Origin: Candidatus Zixiibacteriota bacterium
GTDB lineage: Bacteria > Zixibacteria > MSB-5A5 > CAIYYT01
Assembly (NCBI GenBank): GCA_040235515.1
Contig: JBECKX010000156.1
Span: forward strand, 1-30,886
DNA length: 30,886 bases
Direction: 5' to 3'
Shown here: one piece after another, positions 5,423-26,885 of the stretch
Layout: each line of letters begins with the position of its first letter
Position numbering within the stretch: the stretch's first letter is position 1
Position numbers and translations under genes: made by a program
The notes under the pieces: model-generated
The model's database searches: none
What the model was told of the DNA's origin: nothing
The model's input: only the letters and a program-made list of their open reading frames with translations

Positions 5423-7501
5423 CTACTTCATCATCAACATCTTGCGAGTCTCGGTGAATTCCGATGTGCTGATGCGGTAGAAGTAAACGCCGCTCTGTAC
5501 CGTGCGACCGGAAGAATCGGTTCCATCCCACACAACCCGCTTGTTGCCGGCGCTCAGTGACTCATCTATCAGTGTCGTCACCTTCTGACCGAGAACATTG
5601 TATACCGTCAGAGAAACAACCGCCGGCTTCGGCAAGTTGAATTCAATCGCGGTCGTCGGATTGAAGGGGTTCGGATAGTTCTGCGCCAGGCTGAACTCTG
5701 TCGGCAGCGCTCCACCAATGTCATCGACATCGGTTGACTGATCCACCGTGAGTTGTACATAAACCGTGTCCTGATCATCCTCGATGCTGAGCTTCGGAGT
5801 GATCTGTCTGACGATAATGATCGCCTGATAATCGCCCGGAAGCAGCGAGCCGATTTCGATATTGACGGTCACGTCGGAGGGTGATGTCCCGCTCGTCGCC
5901 GAGAGCGACATCCACGCAGAGGTCTCGGATGCGGACCAGTCGAACTCTACACCTGACGGACTACCGTTCGAGATATTGAAAGACTGCGACTCCGGATTCT
6001 CGCCCATCGCGACGAAGAAGAGCGAATCGGGGTCAAGGATGATGTCAACGTCATCGATGATCGTCACTTCAACGGCAATCGTCTGCGGCGAGTTGTCCGC
6101 TTCGGCCGAAGTGATCGTAATCGTCGCCGTGTGGGTTCCGATGTCGAGCGCAGCGGCATCGATGCTCACGTCGAATCCTGACGGAGCTGCACCGCTCGTG
6201 GCGCTCAGCCCGACCCACGTCTCCGAGGCTGCGGCGTTCCAGTTGAGGTCTCCGGTGCCGCTATTGGTCACGATGATTGTCTGGTCAGCCGGATCAGGAC
6301 CGCCCTGGTAACCATCGAAGAATAGACTGTCTTCATTGAGCGTAATATGGGCTACCGCCGAGGCGATGCTGAAGGTCGCGGCATCACCGTCGCTTGCCGT
6401 ACCCGGATCGGTGGCAGTGAACGTGATAGTCTCACTTCCTGACCAGTCCGCTGACGGCTTGGTAATCGTTGCCACATGGTTGCCATCGATCGTCACCGTC
6501 AAGTCGGTGTTGCCACTATATGTCCAACTGATCTCGGCATCGCTGTGGTCGGGATCCGAAACATAGTCATCCAGATCGAAGGTCGCGAATTCTGCGCCAT
6601 AGGGGAGCGACTGATCCGGTATGTCCGCCACGACCGGCGGATCGTTGACCGGGGTCACCGTGAAGCTGGCGGTATCGGAATCGAACAGGCCACCCGGGTC
6701 GGTCGCGGTGAAGATAATATTGGCGCTGCCGCTGAACTCGCCGCCGGGATGAGTGACCGTAGCAACTCGGCTTCCGTCGATACTCACGCTAAAATCGCCA
6801 TTGTCAGACGAAGCCGTCCAGCTCATGTCAGCATCGGCATCCTCGGCGTCAGTGACAAAGTCGTCAAGATTGATTTGTGCGAAGGTCGAGCCCTCATCGA
6901 TCGTCTGGTCTCCAATCCCTGCAACCACAGGAGCGGTGTTGGAGGAGACATCGCAGCCGCCACCAATGCTGATATCACCATCACCACAGTCAACGTAGCC
7001 CGGGGTGACTGATCCACCAGCCTGCGGGGACACGACGAACACTCCCGCCGGCGGCACGAAGACCGAGTCGATATTCACGCACTGTGCGGCGGTACCGTTC
7101 GGAACCTGAAACCAGATGGTAAGCAGGTGAGCCGGTGTGCTGTGGGCCGGCAACGGAAGTGAAGGAATGAAATTCAGCATTCCAATCAAGACCTGGTTGC
7201 TGGCAGGGCGATTGTCGGTGAGCACGGTAATCGAACCACCAAAGCTCAACGCCGGACCCTGTGAAACCGAACTGATCTCGATATCTGGAGAATTGTGTTC
7301 GAAGCCGAGTGAGAAACCACCCAGCGGATCATCATTTTGAAGGTAAATCTTTACGCCGATCGAATCACCATCCGGGCTCGGTACTTCCACCGGGCACTCA
7401 ACAGAAATGGTGTTGGTTGCGAAAAGTACGTCGGTCATCGCGAAGGTCGAGAATAGAGCCATCGCAACGATCATTAAGGTTGTCGTGAGCAGTTTGCGCA
7501 T
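5423..7501 (-). CDS. Secreted surface protein: signal peptide, cohesin-like domain, 2 cadherin/tandem-95-like Ig repeats, 2 BACON-like repeats, C-terminal FlgD-Ig/T9SS-type sorting domain (692 aa)
   Basis: Start moved to 7501 because of AGGAGGT-N8-ATG and the signal peptide MRKLLTTTLMIVAMALFS. Repeats NTAPVV..LDDFVTD..FTATDPG / NDPPVV..LDDYVSD..FTATDPG and DSLFF..W..LSATSG (x2). C-terminus LAQNYPNPFNPTT...YNVLGQKV...WDG..SGVYFYR..RKMLMMK. Confidence 0.85.
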   Translation of the reverse strand: MRKLLTTTLMIVAMALFSTFAMTDVLFATNTISVECPVEVPSPDGDSIGVKIYLQNDDPLGGFSLGFEHNSPDIEISSVSQGPALSFGGSITVLTDNRPASNQVLIGMLNFIPSLPLPAHSTPAHLLTIWFQVPNGTAAQCVNIDSVFVPPAGVFVVSPQAGGSVTPGYVDCGDGDISIGGGCDVSSNTAPVVAGIGDQTIDEGSTFAQINLDDFVTDAEDADADMSWTASSDNGDFSVSIDGSRVATVTHPGGEFSGSANIIFTATDPGGLFDSDTASFTVTPVNDPPVVADIPDQSLPYGAEFATFDLDDYVSDPDHSDAEISWTYSGNTDLTVTIDGNHVATITKPSADWSGSETITFTATDPGTASDGDAATFSIASAVAHITLNEDSLFFDGYQGGPDPADQTIIVTNSGTGDLNWNAAASETWVGLSATSGAAPSGFDVSIDAAALDIGTHTATITITSAEADNSPQTIAVEVTIIDDVDIILDPDSLFFVAMGENPESQSFNISNGSPSGVEFDWSASETSAWMSLSATSGTSPSDVTVNIEIGSLLPGDYQAIIIVRQITPKLSIEDDQDTVYVQLTVDQSTDVDDIGGALPTEFSLAQNYPNPFNPTTAIEFNLPKPAVVSLTVYNVLGQKVTTLIDESLSAGNKRVVWDGTDSSGRTVQSGVYFYRISTSEFTETRKMLMMK

Positions 7502-7506
7502 ACGAG

Positions 7507-7551
7507 TGCACCTCCTACAGAAGTTTCTTCTCATCACTCCCTGTAGATGCA
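7507..7551 (-). promoter_or_regulatory. Hairpin sequestering the Shine-Dalgarno of the secreted-protein gene
   Basis: On - strand UGCAUCU.ACAGGG can pair with UUCUGU.(AGG).AGGUGCA, covering AGGAGGU. Confidence 0.4.
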
Positions 7552-7698
7552 AACGACGTGCTAAAATCGAAATTCCCTGAATCTGAAACCTGATTTCCGT
7601 GCAGCGGTCGCAAACTGTTCTGATGCAGACTCTTGCCCGGTACCGGGAGTCGTGCCGCCGCTGCTCAATGCTTGAACAGGCACGGTTTGCTTAGTGAA

Positions 7699-7724
7699 GT
7701 AGTTTGCACCATAGGTGCAACTAC
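7699..7724. promoter_or_regulatory. Inverted repeat, candidate operator in the divergent intergenic region
   Basis: GTAGT-TTGCACC-ATA-GGTGCAA-CTAC; perfect 7-3-7 core at 7704-7720. Confidence 0.4.
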
Positions 7725-7865: not shown

Positions 7866-8801
7866 ATGAAAAGCCGGAATATCCTGCAAACTAAAGCGAT
7901 ACTGACTCTAACGTTTGTATTCACATTACTGATACTCTCGTGTGGCGGAGAGGCCGAGGACTCCTCCAGCGATTCCACGAAAGCTGTTCCCGAAGTCTTT
8001 CAAGGCGCCGAGCAAAAAGTTGTTCAGCAACTCTTCAAGATCTGGCAAGTCGACGGACATATCGGCTCGTTCGAGGAAGCGGCGCGCATGGCCGGAGTGA
8101 CAATCACCGATTCGATGCGCGCTGATATGCTGCACAAGATGGAATCTAACCTGATGATGCACGATATGGTTGCCGCTTATCGTCCTTACATATTCACCCT
8201 GACCAACCAGGAAAAACGAATCGCCGGCTATATCCGCCACTATGAACAATCCAAAGGCGAGTTCCCGCCACTCGATTCGGTCGTGGCCACCACCGGATAC
8301 TCACCCGATGAAATCAAATCGCGACTCCAGTTTCTCTCGCGGCTGGAGATGTTCTATGACCTGGGCGCGCCTGACGAGTACAATCAACTTGGCTTCTCCT
8401 ATGGATCAAAACTGACCAATTTCACATTTGATCTGGGGACCCACCTGCATGTCATGAAACCCGCCGGTGGCTCAGAATTCAACGCCGGTTGCGCAAAAGA
8501 GGCGCTGGTCATCGTTGCCAAAGAGTATCGTGATGGGGAAGTGACCTTTAACACCTTTGACCCCTTCTCACTGGAACCGATCACCGTCAACTTCAAGGAT
8601 GGTGAGGTTGCCTCAGTCGATCCCGAAACCTCTGTCCTTTTTACGGGTGGCACCTGCGGCACCAACAACATGTTCACTTCCAGGGGGCATGCCGAAAACT
8701 ACGCTGCACACTTCCCGCAGTTCCAGGGACAGAGGCTGCAAATCTTGCCTGTAGCTGATGCACTTGCCGAGGTAAAGCAGGCAGTCGCCGGAAGTAACTG
8801 A
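7866..8801 (+). CDS. Lipoprotein with a winged-helix-like region and a C-terminal MerB (organomercurial lyase)-like domain
   Basis: Lipobox ILS-C26 after a hydrophobic stretch. GCAKEAL ~ MerB WCALDTL; DPFSLEPITV ~ CAATGAPVSL; VASVDP ~ IQAVEP; TCGTNNMFTSRGHAENYA ~ FCCHVHFFASVPTAEDWA; ILPVADAL ~ IVSVHEAF. MerB segments recalled and aligned by eye. Confidence 0.72.
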   Translation: MKSRNILQTKAILTLTFVFTLLILSCGGEAEDSSSDSTKAVPEVFQGAEQKVVQQLFKIWQVDGHIGSFEEAARMAGVTITDSMRADMLHKMESNLMMHDMVAAYRPYIFTLTNQEKRIAGYIRHYEQSKGEFPPLDSVVATTGYSPDEIKSRLQFLSRLEMFYDLGAPDEYNQLGFSYGSKLTNFTFDLGTHLHVMKPAGGSEFNAGCAKEALVIVAKEYRDGEVTFNTFDPFSLEPITVNFKDGEVASVDPETSVLFTGGTCGTNNMFTSRGHAENYAAHFPQFQGQRLQILPVADALAEVKQAVAGSN

Positions 8802-8935: not shown

Positions 8936-9982
8936 TCAGAAGCCAAACACCACCTGTCCCAGCAACTCGTCGGCGTCGCCTGAGAGATCGGCCCGATATT
9001 CGCTCCGCACCCGCAGCCCCTCCACCAATCCTCTACCGATTCCGAAACAGACGCGCCCTTGATATCCGTCCTCACCTTCTGGCGCATCACCGCCAAAACC
9101 GGTTGCAACTGCATCGTAGCGAACTACTCCTGTCCACCGCGCGAACGAATACGAGGCCTCCGCATAGAATCCATCAATGCTAAGTCTATTGCCAACCGCC
9201 GGAGTGAACCACTCGACGATATATTCTCCCTCGAAACGAAACCCGCCATCCTCCATAACAATCTCCGCGCCTGCGATCTGAAGGTCGGGTGAGTCGTTGC
9301 GCCCCACAGAAAAAGCATACGATCCACCGATTGCCAGAAACGAAAGCGGGGATGCCACCAATCTGCCGCCGATCGCATAATCAGGCAGCAGGGGAGTGGC
9401 GGATAGATCTTCGTCCGCGACACAGCCGAGACCGTTCACCCCGAATGCGGTCAATTCCAGGAGCTGATTACTCACTCGTATGTAACCACCATAATCATTC
9501 CAGCAATCGTGCAACGATTCCACAACGAGTGGCGTGGAGATCAGGTCGCGGTCGATCGAGGCATAGCGCTGCCAGTCCCGCCCGAACGGTACGTCGAACA
9601 ACCCGCCGCCAACGCAAAGTTCAGAAATACTCCACTGGTCGTCCTGCTGCAGGGCAGGGGAGTAGATGCAGTATTCCGCCATCGCCGTGCCGAGCACAAA
9701 GGAGCCGTCATCATGGGCAATCGCCAACTCGATCGACAATTGCGTACCCGATGTTGCCGAGAGATCGACTTCTGCTTGCCCCAGGTGGAATGTCTGCTCC
9801 TCTGCTGCAGCTCCGCCAATCAACAAGTCTGCAAATCCCGTAATCTCGATCTCTGACAACTCACCGACTAAAGACTCCGAATCGGAATCCTGGGCGTTTA
9901 AGCTATTGCTACCCAACATCATAAGCGGCAGTGCGATCGCGGCGAACTTAATCAGGTTACCTCTATGCCGTAAGCTACTCAT
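8936..9982 (-). CDS. Outer-membrane beta-barrel porin (OprO/OprP-like architecture)
   Basis: GGAGG RBS, Sec signal peptide (…SLNA|QD), amphipathic beta-strands, GLFDVPFG, GFYAEASY, VVRYD motifs, C-terminal Phe (GQVVFGF). Confidence 0.8.
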   Translation of the reverse strand: MSSLRHRGNLIKFAAIALPLMMLGSNSLNAQDSDSESLVGELSEIEITGFADLLIGGAAAEEQTFHLGQAEVDLSATSGTQLSIELAIAHDDGSFVLGTAMAEYCIYSPALQQDDQWSISELCVGGGLFDVPFGRDWQRYASIDRDLISTPLVVESLHDCWNDYGGYIRVSNQLLELTAFGVNGLGCVADEDLSATPLLPDYAIGGRLVASPLSFLAIGGSYAFSVGRNDSPDLQIAGAEIVMEDGGFRFEGEYIVEWFTPAVGNRLSIDGFYAEASYSFARWTGVVRYDAVATGFGGDAPEGEDGYQGRVCFGIGRGLVEGLRVRSEYRADLSGDADELLGQVVFGF

Positions 9983-18243: not shown

Positions 18244-20169
18244 ATGCGCGTAACCCAGGACATGATTGCCAATCAGGTTATCTTTAACCTGAGCAATACC
18301 ATCGAACGGTTCCTCAAGATCCAGAATATGATGTCGACCAATCGTCGCATCAACAAACCATCGGATGATCCCGTTGGCACGATCAAGGATCTCTCCTACC
18401 GCGAACGCCTGGCGGAGATATCGCAGTTCAAGGCCAATATCTCGATCGGACAAACCTGGGTCTCCACAACCGATGTCGCGCTCAATGACGTGAATGTCGG
18501 GCTGCGCGAAGCCTACTCGATCGCGGTCGAAATGGCCAACGATACCTACGACGCGACCGCGCGTAACTCGGCAGCCAACGAAATCGCCTCTATCCTCGAC
18601 CAGGCGCTCGCCGCCGGAAACTCGCAGCTGCAAAGCAGCTACATCTTCTCCGGCTACCGCACCCGGACCGAGCCATTCTCGCGCTCCGCAAGCGGCGTGA
18701 CCTACATGGGGGACAACGGACAAATCAATTACACGATCGACTCGCGTGCAAAGGTACAGGTGAACACGATCGGCTCCCGGATCTTTACCTCGCCATTCCA
18801 GGCGATCGGCGCCGAATCGAACGTACATCTCGGTATCGTCGGCACAACACCTCTGGCGAGCCTCCATAACGGCAACGGCATCGACCAGTCACCCGGTATA
18901 TTTACCGTCGTCGACAACAACACCGGTACCAGCGTTGATATCGATATCTCCCTGGCAACCGGCGTCAGCGACGCGATTTCACTGATCAATGCACAGTTGG
19001 CAGGTGCCGGGCTGACCAACATCACCGCCTCGATTGGCATCGAGGGGAACAACCTGAAGCTGGAAGCGACCAGCGTTCCCACGATTACGACCTCGACCCC
19101 GCTGAAGAATCTCAACAACGGCAACGGTATCGATCAATCGCCCGGAGAGTTCGTCATTCGCAACGGCTCTGACTCGATAAACTTCACAGTCGACGTCAGC
19201 AGCGCGTCCACGGTCGGTGATGTCATCAGCGCAATCAACTCGGCTCTCAGCGGCGCGGGCGTCAGCAACGTGACAGCATCTCTCAATACCGCGGGTACTG
19301 GAATCGCGATCACGGACACCAATGGCATCCCGCTCGGCTTGCGCGTCGAGGATTCAGCCCCGACGGAGTTCACCGCGGCGAACCTCGGCATTGTCGGCCT
19401 GATCGCAACCGACCTGCAGGGTACAGATCTGAATCCGCGTCCCGATTTTACCGTGAAGGAGTTCGGCGCGGGTTCGACCGCCAGCGATCTCGGCATTGCC
19501 GGTGATTTTCACTTCAACAAGGCGGGGGATGCGCTAGAGCCTCAGTTGCTGCCGACGTCACTGCTCTCGCAGTTCCAGAACGGACTCGGGATCCCGGGCG
19601 GCGAGTTCAAAATCTCGCAGGGGAGTCAAACCGTCTCCTTCAACACTCAAGCAGCCGGGATAACAACTGTACAGGATCTGCTCGATGCGATCAATAACTC
19701 GGCGCTCGATGTTACCGCGTCGATCAACGACGCAGGCACCGGAATCCAGATCGTCAACGATGACCCTTCACGCACGCTGATCGTCAACAACGGCGATGGC
19801 AGCACCGCCGCGACAAATCTGGGGATCAATGATTCGGCTGATGTACTCGGTACGCTGATGTTTCTCGTGGATGCACTGCGGAGAAACGACCGCGAATCGG
19901 TGGAAACGGCCATCGGTACACTCGACAAAGCCCTCAACAAAGTACTCGACGAGCGTGCGTCGGCAGGCGCGAAGGTCATCCGCATGGAAACGACCTTCAG
20001 CCGACTCGAACAATCGGAGTTGAGCTACACCAGCTTGCTCTCGGATGTGGAGGATGCCGACATCACTCAACTCGTAACCGACCTGGCAATGCAGGAAAAT
20101 GCTTATAACGCGGCTCTTCAATCAGCCGCCCGGATAGTCCAGCCGTCACTATTGGATTTTTTAAGGTGA
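18244..20169 (+). CDS. flgL: Hook-associated protein FlgL, enlarged by internal repeats
   Basis: MRVTQ, RINKPSDDPV, YIFSGYRT, LSDVEDADI..YNAALQSAARIVQPSLLDFLR motifs. Confidence 0.95.
   Translation: MRVTQDMIANQVIFNLSNTIERFLKIQNMMSTNRRINKPSDDPVGTIKDLSYRERLAEISQFKANISIGQTWVSTTDVALNDVNVGLREAYSIAVEMANDTYDATARNSAANEIASILDQALAAGNSQLQSSYIFSGYRTRTEPFSRSASGVTYMGDNGQINYTIDSRAKVQVNTIGSRIFTSPFQAIGAESNVHLGIVGTTPLASLHNGNGIDQSPGIFTVVDNNTGTSVDIDISLATGVSDAISLINAQLAGAGLTNITASIGIEGNNLKLEATSVPTITTSTPLKNLNNGNGIDQSPGEFVIRNGSDSINFTVDVSSASTVGDVISAINSALSGAGVSNVTASLNTAGTGIAITDTNGIPLGLRVEDSAPTEFTAANLGIVGLIATDLQGTDLNPRPDFTVKEFGAGSTASDLGIAGDFHFNKAGDALEPQLLPTSLLSQFQNGLGIPGGEFKISQGSQTVSFNTQAAGITTVQDLLDAINNSALDVTASINDAGTGIQIVNDDPSRTLIVNNGDGSTAATNLGINDSADVLGTLMFLVDALRRNDRESVETAIGTLDKALNKVLDERASAGAKVIRMETTFSRLEQSELSYTSLLSDVEDADITQLVTDLAMQENAYNAALQSAARIVQPSLLDFLR
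18841..19830 (+). repeat. Three internal protein-level repeats in FlgL
   Basis: TTPLASLHNGNGIDQSPG / STPLKNLNNGNGIDQSPG (249 nt apart) / TSLLSQFQNGLGIPGG, each followed by TVxDxIxxIN..VTASxN-like segments. Confidence 0.75.
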
Positions 20170-24695: not shown

Positions 24696-26885
24696 ATGGC
24701 TCTACGCATTAACCACAACATTGCCGCACTGGATGCCCAGCGTAACCTGGCTATGACTACACGTTCCATGAGTGGTGTCATGGAGAAGCTGTCTTCAGGT
24801 TATCGTATCAACAAAGCGTCCGATGATCCGGCGGGTCTGGTCATTTCCGAGCAGTTCCGTGCTCAGATTGCCGGCCTCAACCGCGCGATTCAGAACTCAG
24901 AGGGCTCGATCAACATGATCCAGACCGCTGAGGGATCGCTCAACGAGATCAACTCTTTGCTCGTTTCCATGCGTGAGTTGGCGATTCACGCCGCGAACGA
25001 AGGATTCAACGATGCCAACCAGCTGGCAGCTGACCAGGCAGAAATCGAAAACGCGATCAAGACGATCGACCGTATCGCTGCCAACACTCAGTTCGGTACC
25101 AAGAAGCTCCTCGATGGCACCAAGGACAATATCGCGACTATTACTACCGCGAATTCCTCCGGCCTCACCATCGTCCAGAGCGGCTTGTCCTCAGGTAGCC
25201 ACTCGATTACCGCTACCAAGACCGCCGATGCCAGCGCTTCGCTGAACACGACTTCTCTCGGTATCTCGCTCAGCAGCTCAGGCAATCCGAACAACCTCGA
25301 AGAGAAGATCCACAACCTGAACGTGCTTCAGGCCTCAGCCGGCGCCGAGAAGGATTCTGCTGATGTGGCTATTACAGACGCGTTTGGTAACGGCCTCCAG
25401 GTCGCTGCCACAGCCGACTACGCCACCATCAACAGCGCCGCCTCAACCGTCGCCGCCGCTACAACGTCACAGGCTGGTACCTACACCATCGTTCTCAACT
25501 ACCAGGAGAACAATGAGTCGGTGACCGGTGACCAGACGTTGCAGATCGCGATCGCTTCAAGTGATACCCGCGCCAACATCATTGACAAGTGGAACCAGGC
25601 CATCGCCAACAACGCTGCGCTGGCCGGCAAGGTTACCGCTGCCACATACTCCGTCAGCGGTGGTGGTACCGGTATCCAGTTCCGTTCCGTCAACAAGGGT
25701 GCGCAGTACTCCCTGAAGATGACTTCGGCCTCGACCGATGCCACAACTAACTACATGGGCATGGGCTCCTCACGCTCAAGCCGTGGCGTTAGCTTGAACG
25801 TTCTCAACTTCACCGTCACAACGGCGAAGAACACCAACACGACCGCCAACGCTACTGTCGGCGCTGCAACTTACTCGTCAATGTCAACTCTGGCTACGGC
25901 GATTCAGACTGCGCTTAACTCAGCGTTCGGTACCGTCTCCGACGGTTCAGGTTCGTCAACGACCAACGACGTGGATGTCCAGGCGGTTGATAACAAGCTC
26001 CGCTTCTTCACCTACGACGAAGGTTCCGATTACAAGATCAAGCACAACTCTACCGGTAACGAGACCGAGCGTCTTTACAACGTTCTCGGCCTCTCGGTCG
26101 ATACCCTCGCCATCTCCGGTACCGATGCGCTGGTCAACTTCGACGGCTTTACCAGCACTGTCACATCAGTGAAGTACGGTTCAACTTCTAACGTCACGCT
26201 TTACAACAAGGCGGCGGGAGAAGCCGGCCGTGGTAGCGTCGACCTTGTCATCGACAAGGCGTCGAACGGCATCAACATCGGCAACCTGTTGCTCGATGTC
26301 AAAGCCGCGAAATTCGACGTTCGTCTCGATGGTGGCCCGGCCACGTCAGTGACCGCCGGTAAGGATGCCACGATCTATGACGCCGATCGTTCCGAATCCC
26401 TCAAGATTCGCTACAGCCTGACCTCACAGGGTGGTTCCGAAACCATCTCCAACACCGATCAGTCGCTCGTCTTCCAGATCGGTGCCAACGTCGGTCAGAC
26501 TGCTTCAATCGGTCTGCGCAACATGGCTGCCTCAGCGCTCGGTAAGGACGTTGCCGGTAACATGTTCGCAAGCCTCGCCGATATCAATGTCGAGACCGTC
26601 CAGGGCGCACAGGATGCCCAGGCCCTTATCGACAAGGCGATTGATGAGGTTACCAACGCTCGCGGTACTCTCGGTTCGTTCCAGAAGAACACGCTCGAAT
26701 CGAACCTGCGTAACCTCCGCGTTGCGTCACAGAATCTGTCCGCTTCAGAGTCCGGCATTCGTGACACCGATATGGCCGAAGCCATGTCCGAGTTCACGAA
26801 GTACCAGATCCTGATGCAGGCTGGTACGGCCATGCTGGCTCAGGGCAACCAGATGCCGCAGATCGTACTTTCGCTGTTCGGATAA
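24696..26885 (+). CDS. fliC: Flagellin (729 aa)
   Basis: MALRINHN, EKLSSGYRINKASDDPAGLVISE, FQIGAN, RGTLGSFQ, ESGIRDTDMA, AGTAMLAQ motifs. Confidence 0.98.
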   Translation: MALRINHNIAALDAQRNLAMTTRSMSGVMEKLSSGYRINKASDDPAGLVISEQFRAQIAGLNRAIQNSEGSINMIQTAEGSLNEINSLLVSMRELAIHAANEGFNDANQLAADQAEIENAIKTIDRIAANTQFGTKKLLDGTKDNIATITTANSSGLTIVQSGLSSGSHSITATKTADASASLNTTSLGISLSSSGNPNNLEEKIHNLNVLQASAGAEKDSADVAITDAFGNGLQVAATADYATINSAASTVAAATTSQAGTYTIVLNYQENNESVTGDQTLQIAIASSDTRANIIDKWNQAIANNAALAGKVTAATYSVSGGGTGIQFRSVNKGAQYSLKMTSASTDATTNYMGMGSSRSSRGVSLNVLNFTVTTAKNTNTTANATVGAATYSSMSTLATAIQTALNSAFGTVSDGSGSSTTNDVDVQAVDNKLRFFTYDEGSDYKIKHNSTGNETERLYNVLGLSVDTLAISGTDALVNFDGFTSTVTSVKYGSTSNVTLYNKAAGEAGRGSVDLVIDKASNGINIGNLLLDVKAAKFDVRLDGGPATSVTAGKDATIYDADRSESLKIRYSLTSQGGSETISNTDQSLVFQIGANVGQTASIGLRNMAASALGKDVAGNMFASLADINVETVQGAQDAQALIDKAIDEVTNARGTLGSFQKNTLESNLRNLRVASQNLSASESGIRDTDMAEAMSEFTKYQILMQAGTAMLAQGNQMPQIVLSLFG

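Follow-up and report, generated by a model that had tools for sequence, protein, structure and literature searches.

We found that the gene at positions 7866-8801 of the window (the whole stretch of 30,886 nucleotides analyzed here, contig JBECKX010000156.1 of a Candidatus Zixiibacteriota bacterium) belongs, by its sequence, to an exported branch of the MerB fold that lies outside mer operons and is a newly found variant of the MerB kind. Its clade is placed by our alignments and tree as the cysteine form within a tandem-helix MerB-like family, in other branches of which one or both catalytic positions have UGA followed by a SECIS-type hairpin. The initial annotation had proposed an undescribed exported MerB-family branch linked to the copper chaperone NosL or acting as an envelope organometal lyase; the branch and its position outside mer operons stood, and the copper link did not.

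Homology to MerB, which had been read by eye from the C-terminal domain, was real in profile searches. The Pfam MerB lyase family matched the window protein at 38 bits (cut-off 27), and 18 of the 24 homologues matched it at E<=0.01, but the NCBIfam MerB model NF033555 gave 13.2 bits and did not pass its cut-off of 200. The best solved relative by sequence was MerB2 (5c17, E 0.005). Profile-profile comparison of the alignment of 24 homologues with four annotated plasmid MerB proteins gave a match probability of 97% (E 6e-11) over amino acids (aa) 132-293, and because this alignment includes the winged helix-turn-helix (wHTH), both MerB domains are present. An AlphaFold model built on a 13-row alignment (mean pLDDT of 79) agreed with these results: all 11 Foldseek matches at E<=0.001 were MerB or MerB2, and VIA-align superposed the model on MerB structures with Z scores of 12.6 to 16.8 (rmsd of about 3.2 over 136 to 140 residues; 3f0o, Z 16.8, rmsd 3.2, 139 residues). 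The predicted winged helix likewise proved sound, as aa 111-186 of the model matched LexA-type wHTH domains with Z of about 10 (LexA 1jhh, Z 10.2, rmsd 1.8, 70 residues). The NosL comparison, proposed together with that to MerB, came out much weaker (7og7, Z 7.8, rmsd 3.0, 102 residues), below the tool threshold of 8 and at the level of unrelated wHTH matches, and can be explained by the kinship of NosL with MerB. Whole-chain Foldseek rmsd values of 12-14 Å suggest that the domain orientation differs. In the ESM Atlas, MerB clusters appeared at 0.80, which we treat as a lead only.

The helical domain at aa 45-105, which canonical MerB lacks, is common to the window protein and its selenocysteine-containing sister family. 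We observed a weak internal repeat between this domain and the helix-turn-helix (hhalign probability 47%, E 2e-4), and the domain may be a diverged copy of the latter.

The lipobox reported earlier was also borne out. A basic N-region and then a hydrophobic stretch (mean Kyte-Doolittle 2.68) precede Cys26, and a hydrophobic leader ending in the aligned lipobox Cys was called heuristically in all 24 aligned homologues. Lgt and signal peptidase II are encoded in the same genome. We consider export, lipidation, and envelope anchoring most likely for this protein. The dN/dS ratio was 0.03-0.07 over the whole gene in four of five orthologue pairs, with the fifth saturated, and 0.03-0.09 over the lyase part in five pairs, values that place the gene under purifying selection.

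Features of the gene and its upstream region in the window (clade counts refer to 24 aligned homologues)
Feature	Positions	Strand	Observation
MerB-fold predicted lipoprotein gene (P0001), 311 aa	7866..8801	+	ORF translation matches earlier description
Predicted lipoprotein signal peptide, aa 1-25, with lipobox Cys26 (7941-7943)	7866..7943	+	Alignment of leader and Cys
Extra N-terminal helical domain, ~aa 45-105	7998..8180	+	Helices in AlphaFold model; aligns to P0133
Met/His patch, aa 84-101	8115..8168	+	6 Met and 2 His here; only His99 kept (19/24)
Winged-helix domain, ~aa 110-180	8193..8405	+	Counterpart of MerB N-terminal domain, LexA-like fold; profile and structure match
MerB lyase domain PF03243, aa 195-293	8448..8744	+	Pfam match; lacks ~10-residue loop before Cys159
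Cys209	8490..8492	+	MerB Cys96; UGA (Sec) in exported sister clade; Cys in 24/24
Glu212	8499..8501	+	MerB Asp99; Asp in Sec clades; Glu in 24/24
Asp232	8559..8561	+	MerB Cys117 position; CxHC in Sec clades; Asp in 24/24
Cys264	8655..8657	+	MerB Cys159; UGA (Sec) in sister clades; Cys 20/24, Arg 4/24
Palindrome TTGCA-N7-TGCA(A)	7704..7720	.	Intergenic region shared with divergent gene; kept at 18/18 loci

The assignment of four active-site positions made in the initial annotation held in both the profile and the family alignment (Table). Residues invariant in the 24 aligned sequences were the lipobox Cys, His195, Asn206, Cys209, Glu212, Asp232, and Asn267. The accessible text of PMC8261052 gives Asp99/Cys117 as the MerB signature with 99Ser and 117alt as described variants, and the Glu212-Asp232 combination departs from that signature in every homologue. 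In the subclade P0015-P0018, G-W-(Y/F)-R-G stands for G-G-T-C-G, such that the Cys159 equivalent is lost and Cys209 and Glu212 are kept. Since Arg264 occurs in four of the 24 and the basal homologue P0024 has neither catalytic cysteine (Gly at the Cys209 position), a two-thiol clamp is not family-wide, and the Arg264 subclade indicates that it is dispensable in part of the family. From what is accessible of PMC10114901 and PMC8261052, MerB holds metal through Cys96, Cys159, and Asp99, and changes of Asp99 abolish or lower activity while metal binding stays; our literature search found no paper on a D99E MerB.

A word-indexed alignment search stayed within the window's clade, and the full HMM search of 1.84 billion representatives, which returned 108 matches, alone reached the wider family. 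By a rough pattern, 45 of these matches end just before the Cys96 (26) or Cys159 (19) position. For a check at the DNA level, loci were retrieved with two sub-alignments, yielding 14 exported-clade genome loci from Acidobacteriota, Bacteroidota, Calditrichota, Deferribacterota, Marinimicrobia, and unplaced genomes. Ten of the 14 could be read through a pair of in-frame TGA codons (W-U-x-x-D and GGG-U), and in these the homology continued to the natural end; one more had the first TGA before the contig end, two were frameshifted, and one was cut off. Most of the exported sister proteins open with a hydrophobic leader, and several have a lipobox-like Cys. All 21 catalytic TGAs were followed, 20-21 bases downstream, by a hairpin of 5-13 bp with a GGTC loop, a layout that we take to be a SelB-type SECIS. 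This hairpin was found at none of three true-stop TGAs and at none of 36 catalytic codons in the window's clade, and it also followed all nine catalytic TGAs in six of eight metagenome loci from a non-exported branch. The stems were 99% paired, with both-side changes in 3 and 9 cells, and none of 500 shuffles reached the covariation score, a score that the relatedness of the sequences inflates. A match to selA was present in 10 of 11 exported-clade genomes and in 20 of the 21 genomes of the window's family.

The window's gene itself has Cys codons at both catalytic sites and neither UGA nor a GGTC hairpin. We considered a relic SECIS in its clade and rejected it, as none of the 36 catalytic-position codons at 18 loci was TGA or preceded a GGTC-loop hairpin. 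A DNA-pattern scan of the genome contigs with the window protein confirmed nothing. Elsewhere in the phylum, two other MerB-domain genes, L089 (genome G084) and L096 (G009), each have one in-frame TGA inside the Pfam match and are candidates for further selenoproteins. One member of the scanned tandem-helix set matches bacteriohemerythrin. The 168-aa sequence P0087, which stops just short of the Cys96 position, has a bacteriohemerythrin-like N terminus that suggests a hemerythrin fusion.

Membership of the window protein in this family is supported by each of the traits that we compared, namely the extra helical domain, the wHTH, the lyase domain with a short loop, and a separate clade. A search with the di-selenocysteine lipoprotein P0133 returned ORF 7866-8801 as its sole match in the window's genome, and the two proteins align over 255 aa and all three domains (24% identity, E 8e-17). 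A tree was built on 51 rows after removal of 13 of the 27 clade members and of eight rows that were long or divergent. In it the window's clade (support 100/100) joined the Sec clades in a group supported at 100/97, which excluded five canonical-type MerB rows. The tree does not support any one branching order inside that group and is therefore silent on the direction between Sec and Cys.

Twelve homologues have 44-57% identity to the window protein, one of them labeled Candidatus Zixiibacteriota. An orthologue was present in single copy and in synteny in 18 of the 21 family genomes, and the search of 264 further genomes from the phylum found none. We regard the gene as stably and vertically inherited in this clade. 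Of the three family genomes without it, G010 has a contig that breaks off at this position, G019 matched the neighboring surface-protein gene only in part, and G004 has that neighbor with the orthologue absent beside it. The gene sits at the fliI-fliJ end of a flagellar gene cluster. The survey of homologue neighborhoods proposed in the initial annotation covered 11 regions. The gene was divergent from the same secreted Ig/BACON/sorting-domain gene in all 11, the downstream genes varied (flgF-type, thiolase-type, and others, identified by eye), and no metal, redox, or mer gene was among the shared neighbors, as named by eye.

The divergent gene (5423-7552, minus strand) encodes a secreted protein with Ig-like, BACON, and C-terminal FlgD/T9SS-type sorting domains that is kept beside fliJ in most relatives at 700-1330 aa and is a candidate major surface protein. 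A sigma54-like -24/-12 motif at 7549-7563 on the minus strand is aimed at this gene in 16 of 18 loci, and its spacing from the intergenic palindrome, the full form of which (TTGCA-N7-TGCA) occurs only three times in the genome, is fixed at 141-142 bp across the family. The surface-protein gene likely has an enhancer-dependent promoter, with the palindrome likely being its enhancer rather than a metal-regulator site. A generic promoter scan gave no sigma70 site upstream of ORF 7866-8801 on the plus strand. On its other side, 8936-9982 (minus strand) encodes a predicted outer-membrane porin (Atlas 0.97, with PF07396 Porin_O_P in 21-47% of top-cluster members) that has no Pfam match itself and is present in only one of the 11 regions. 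The window also encodes unusually long flagellar proteins, which we named by eye: a FlgL-like protein of 641 aa (18244-20169) and a flagellin-like protein of 729 aa (24696-26885).

Our tentative preference, which we regard as possible though somewhat short of probable, is that the protein presents a lipid-anchored Cys/Glu/Cys site for soft metals or organometals and traps or shuttles these, cleaving carbon-metal bonds little or not at all. The protein would be exported by Sec, lipidated at Cys26, and anchored in the envelope with the site facing the outer side of a membrane. A TlpA-like redoxin, of which the genome has several, would keep its thiols reduced, a step that we propose from the redoxin pairing of the sister clade. 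Cys209 and Cys264 would hold the metal with Glu212 as an oxygen ligand, as Hg(II) is held in MerB, and the longer Glu together with the shortened loop would slow protonolysis, so that the protein would buffer the metal or hand it on. Conservation of Cys209 and Glu212 throughout the clade and of Cys264 in most of it favors such a site, as do purifying selection in the lyase part, the grouping with the Sec clades, and the redoxin, MerB-domain, heavy-metal, and merA genes near some relatives. Counting against it are the absence of shared metal, redox, or mer neighbors, the presence of hgcA in only one of 18 carrier genomes, and the lack of a CcdA match to either of two queries in the window's genome; a periplasmic Cys209/Cys264 pair may also simply form a disulfide.

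Mercury alone is unlikely to maintain the gene, considering its stable vertical inheritance in genomes without merA. The earlier statement that the window lacks merA, merR, merT, and merP was confirmed, as none was recognizable by eye among its ORFs and searches of the genome gave no match to MerT, MerP, or MerR. None of the 21 genomes of the family had merA over cut-off, and the two best matches in the window's genome, considered as a hidden merA, were a dihydrolipoyl dehydrogenase and a transhydrogenase. A link to mercury methylation was likewise rejected on the hgcA count in carriers, against about 48-49 of 285 genomes in the phylum. Across the phylum, hgcA over cut-off is distributed patchily by family.

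Two Sec residues in one active site are characteristic of redox catalysts, and the Cys pair (Sec in relatives) could instead cycle between dithiol and disulfide in an envelope thiol-redox enzyme that reduces or repairs a substrate and is recycled by a TlpA-type redoxin. A TlpA-type redoxin is upstream of or fused to the gene in 10 of the 14 exported sister loci, the 10 that were scanned on the relevant strand; MerA passed cut-off in only one of 11 exported-clade genomes; and the window's genome has five TlpA-like loci. However, no redoxin lies beside the gene in the window's clade, the Sec clades retain the MerB Asp99, a metal site kept reduced would need a redoxin equally, and heavy-metal genes occur near some sister loci, so that we consider this enzymatic role doubtful. 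In the sister-clade survey, which covered 48 of 112 neighboring ORFs, a heavy-metal ATPase and an HMA gene were near one of the 14 exported loci, a MerB-domain gene adjoined two, and BlaI and/or M56-type genes were near three. The redoxin-like domain is fused N-terminally to the tandem-helix MerB-like protein in L070:5497-7068, P0054, and P0069.

It is also possible, though in our view unlikely, that a MerB scaffold has been reused structurally or for assembly in a non-catalytic envelope protein that needs its cysteines only in part, with a job perhaps tied to the divergent surface protein or the flagellar cluster. The constant divergent partner at the fliI-fliJ end, the single copy confined to one family, and the losses of Cys264 and, in P0024, of both cysteines are consistent with this role. 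Such a role is harder to reconcile with the invariance of Cys209, Glu212, His195, Asn206, and Asn267, with G004 having the surface-protein orthologue alone, and with the two divergent genes appearing to be separately promoted.

A further alternative is a true envelope lyase that would cleave R-Hg (or R-Sn or R-Pb) extracytoplasmically and without MerA, using Glu212 as its acid. A Cys/acid/Cys triad is found in 20 of 24 homologues and U-x-x-D...U in the sister clades, the exported Cys-form relative P0028 has the full C96/D99/C117/C159 set, and merB without merA is common among genomes according to the accessible text of PMC8261052. One relative, non-exported and di-Sec, sits in a merA cluster, 3.4 kb downstream of a merA over its cut-off. 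This metagenome locus (L081:1-5706) has merA, redoxin-like, CcdA-like, HMA-like, and beta-propeller genes before the di-Sec gene (the redoxin-like and CcdA-like genes named by eye), an order resembling merA-merB-redoxin-ccdA on plasmid locus L058. Nevertheless, the role is weakened by Glu at position 99, the loss of Cys159 in a subclade, and the absence of merA, in addition to the low NF033555 score and the missing hgcA link; the accessible part of PMC10114901 reports Cys96, Asp99, and Cys159 as essential for MerB. We rate this lyase role as quite improbable. In a broader version, which we likewise hold to be unlikely, the window lipoprotein and its exported di-Sec relatives would together be extracytoplasmic, redoxin-recycled organometal lyases that cleave carbon-metal bonds in the periplasm without MerA. 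If so, sediment bacteria would have an overlooked demethylation route acting on methylmercury or other organometals, one that escaped notice because databases contain the Sec genes in truncated form and because MerB signature filters reject the Cys form.

A NosL-like chaperone, in which the Met/His patch and the Cys pair would deliver Cu(I) to a periplasmic cuproenzyme, is very unlikely, and the copper argument from the patch fails because the patch is not conserved. The 18-residue stretch is indeed present as first described, and no other 18-mer of this kind occurs in the genome's 2995 crudely called ORFs. Across the 24 homologues, however, it contains 0-6 Met (median of 1, with none in nine), four of its six Met positions being L, I, V, or F in most of them, which ruled it out as a copper site. 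The protein shares with NosL a predicted lipoprotein signal and the weak structural match noted above, and the genome has a CuA-type domain match on contig C142; two SCO-family genes flank this match and count against the chaperone reading. Neither the protein nor the genome matched the NosL family PF05573, and no nosZ was found in the genome. In the accessible text of PMC8457098, the copper ligands of NosL are a Cys-x-Met motif, which is strictly conserved, and one more Met; the mature proteins of the window's family have no conserved Met. The earlier premise that substitution of Asp99 favors copper is correct for the engineered D99S MerB, which bound Cu(II), and not for native Ser99 MerB2, which did not (PMC8261052 and PMC10114901, as far as accessible). 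The accessible portion of PMC4999995 covers only the fold shared by NosL and MerB.

These findings describe an exported, vertically inherited MerB branch that is strongly selected in bacteria lacking merA and that represents, as its alignments suggest, the natural cysteine counterpart of an exported di-selenocysteine family not yet catalogued. MerB has been called an orphan fold that lacks both a clear origin and a clear function outside mercury (PMC10114901, accessible text). Because expressing the Cys form in common hosts would require no Sec recoding, it offers the easiest handle on non-mercury roles of the fold, with the natural Glu99 and Arg159 variants as built-in controls. For merB surveys, Pfam alone counts ORF 7866-8801 as merB, and filters on C96/D99/C159 miss both this gene and the truncated Sec genes. 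Our literature search, at the level of listings and abstracts, found no exported MerB, and the accessible parts of PMC12484752 and PMC3903129 do not describe such a branch. NCBIfam (June 2026) has no model specific for the tandem-helix family, the top matches among 103 members scanned being SaoL (19) and MerB (16). SaoL is the sole MerB-naming entry in the accessible text of two selenoproteome reviews (PMC13188914, PMC9312934), and the main text of the BSepDB paper has no MerB-like term.

Compared with known systems, the window protein has the same wHTH and lyase fold as MerB (plasmid R831b; 3F0O, 3F2G; NF033555, PF03243) and Bacillus MerB2 (5C17), with Cys at positions 96 and 159 and an acid at 99. 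It differs from them in its lipoprotein signal, extra helical domain, and shorter loop and in having Glu99 and Asp117, which also set it apart at both positions from the described 99Ser and 117alt variants; canonical MerB is cytoplasmic and encoded in a mer operon or together with merA. SaoL (NF040728) is also MerB-like and outside mer operons, and its Sec occupies the Cys159 position, a placement that the sister clades share. It is, however, a cytosolic protein of 213 aa in C. difficile that contains a CU motif and a single Sec and is encoded in a nine-gene SAO locus (bioRxiv 10.1101/2022.07.06.499078). The window protein has no Sec, a flagellar neighborhood, and no NF040728 match at E<=1, and three read-through relatives scored about 30 bits against the SaoL cut-off of 140. 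NosL (PF05573; 7OG7) is a lipoprotein with a MerB-related core (PMC8457098, accessible text) but has no wHTH. Closest are the tandem-helix proteins of L067-L086, such as P0133, many of which are exported, some with a lipobox, and which have the same short loop before Cys159. Their Sec members are distributed patchily over several phyla and combine U-x-x-D, GGG-U, SECIS-type hairpins, and CxHC at position 117 with an adjacent redoxin, whereas the window's clade has no redoxin neighbor, uses cysteine only, has Glu99, and appears to be inherited vertically.
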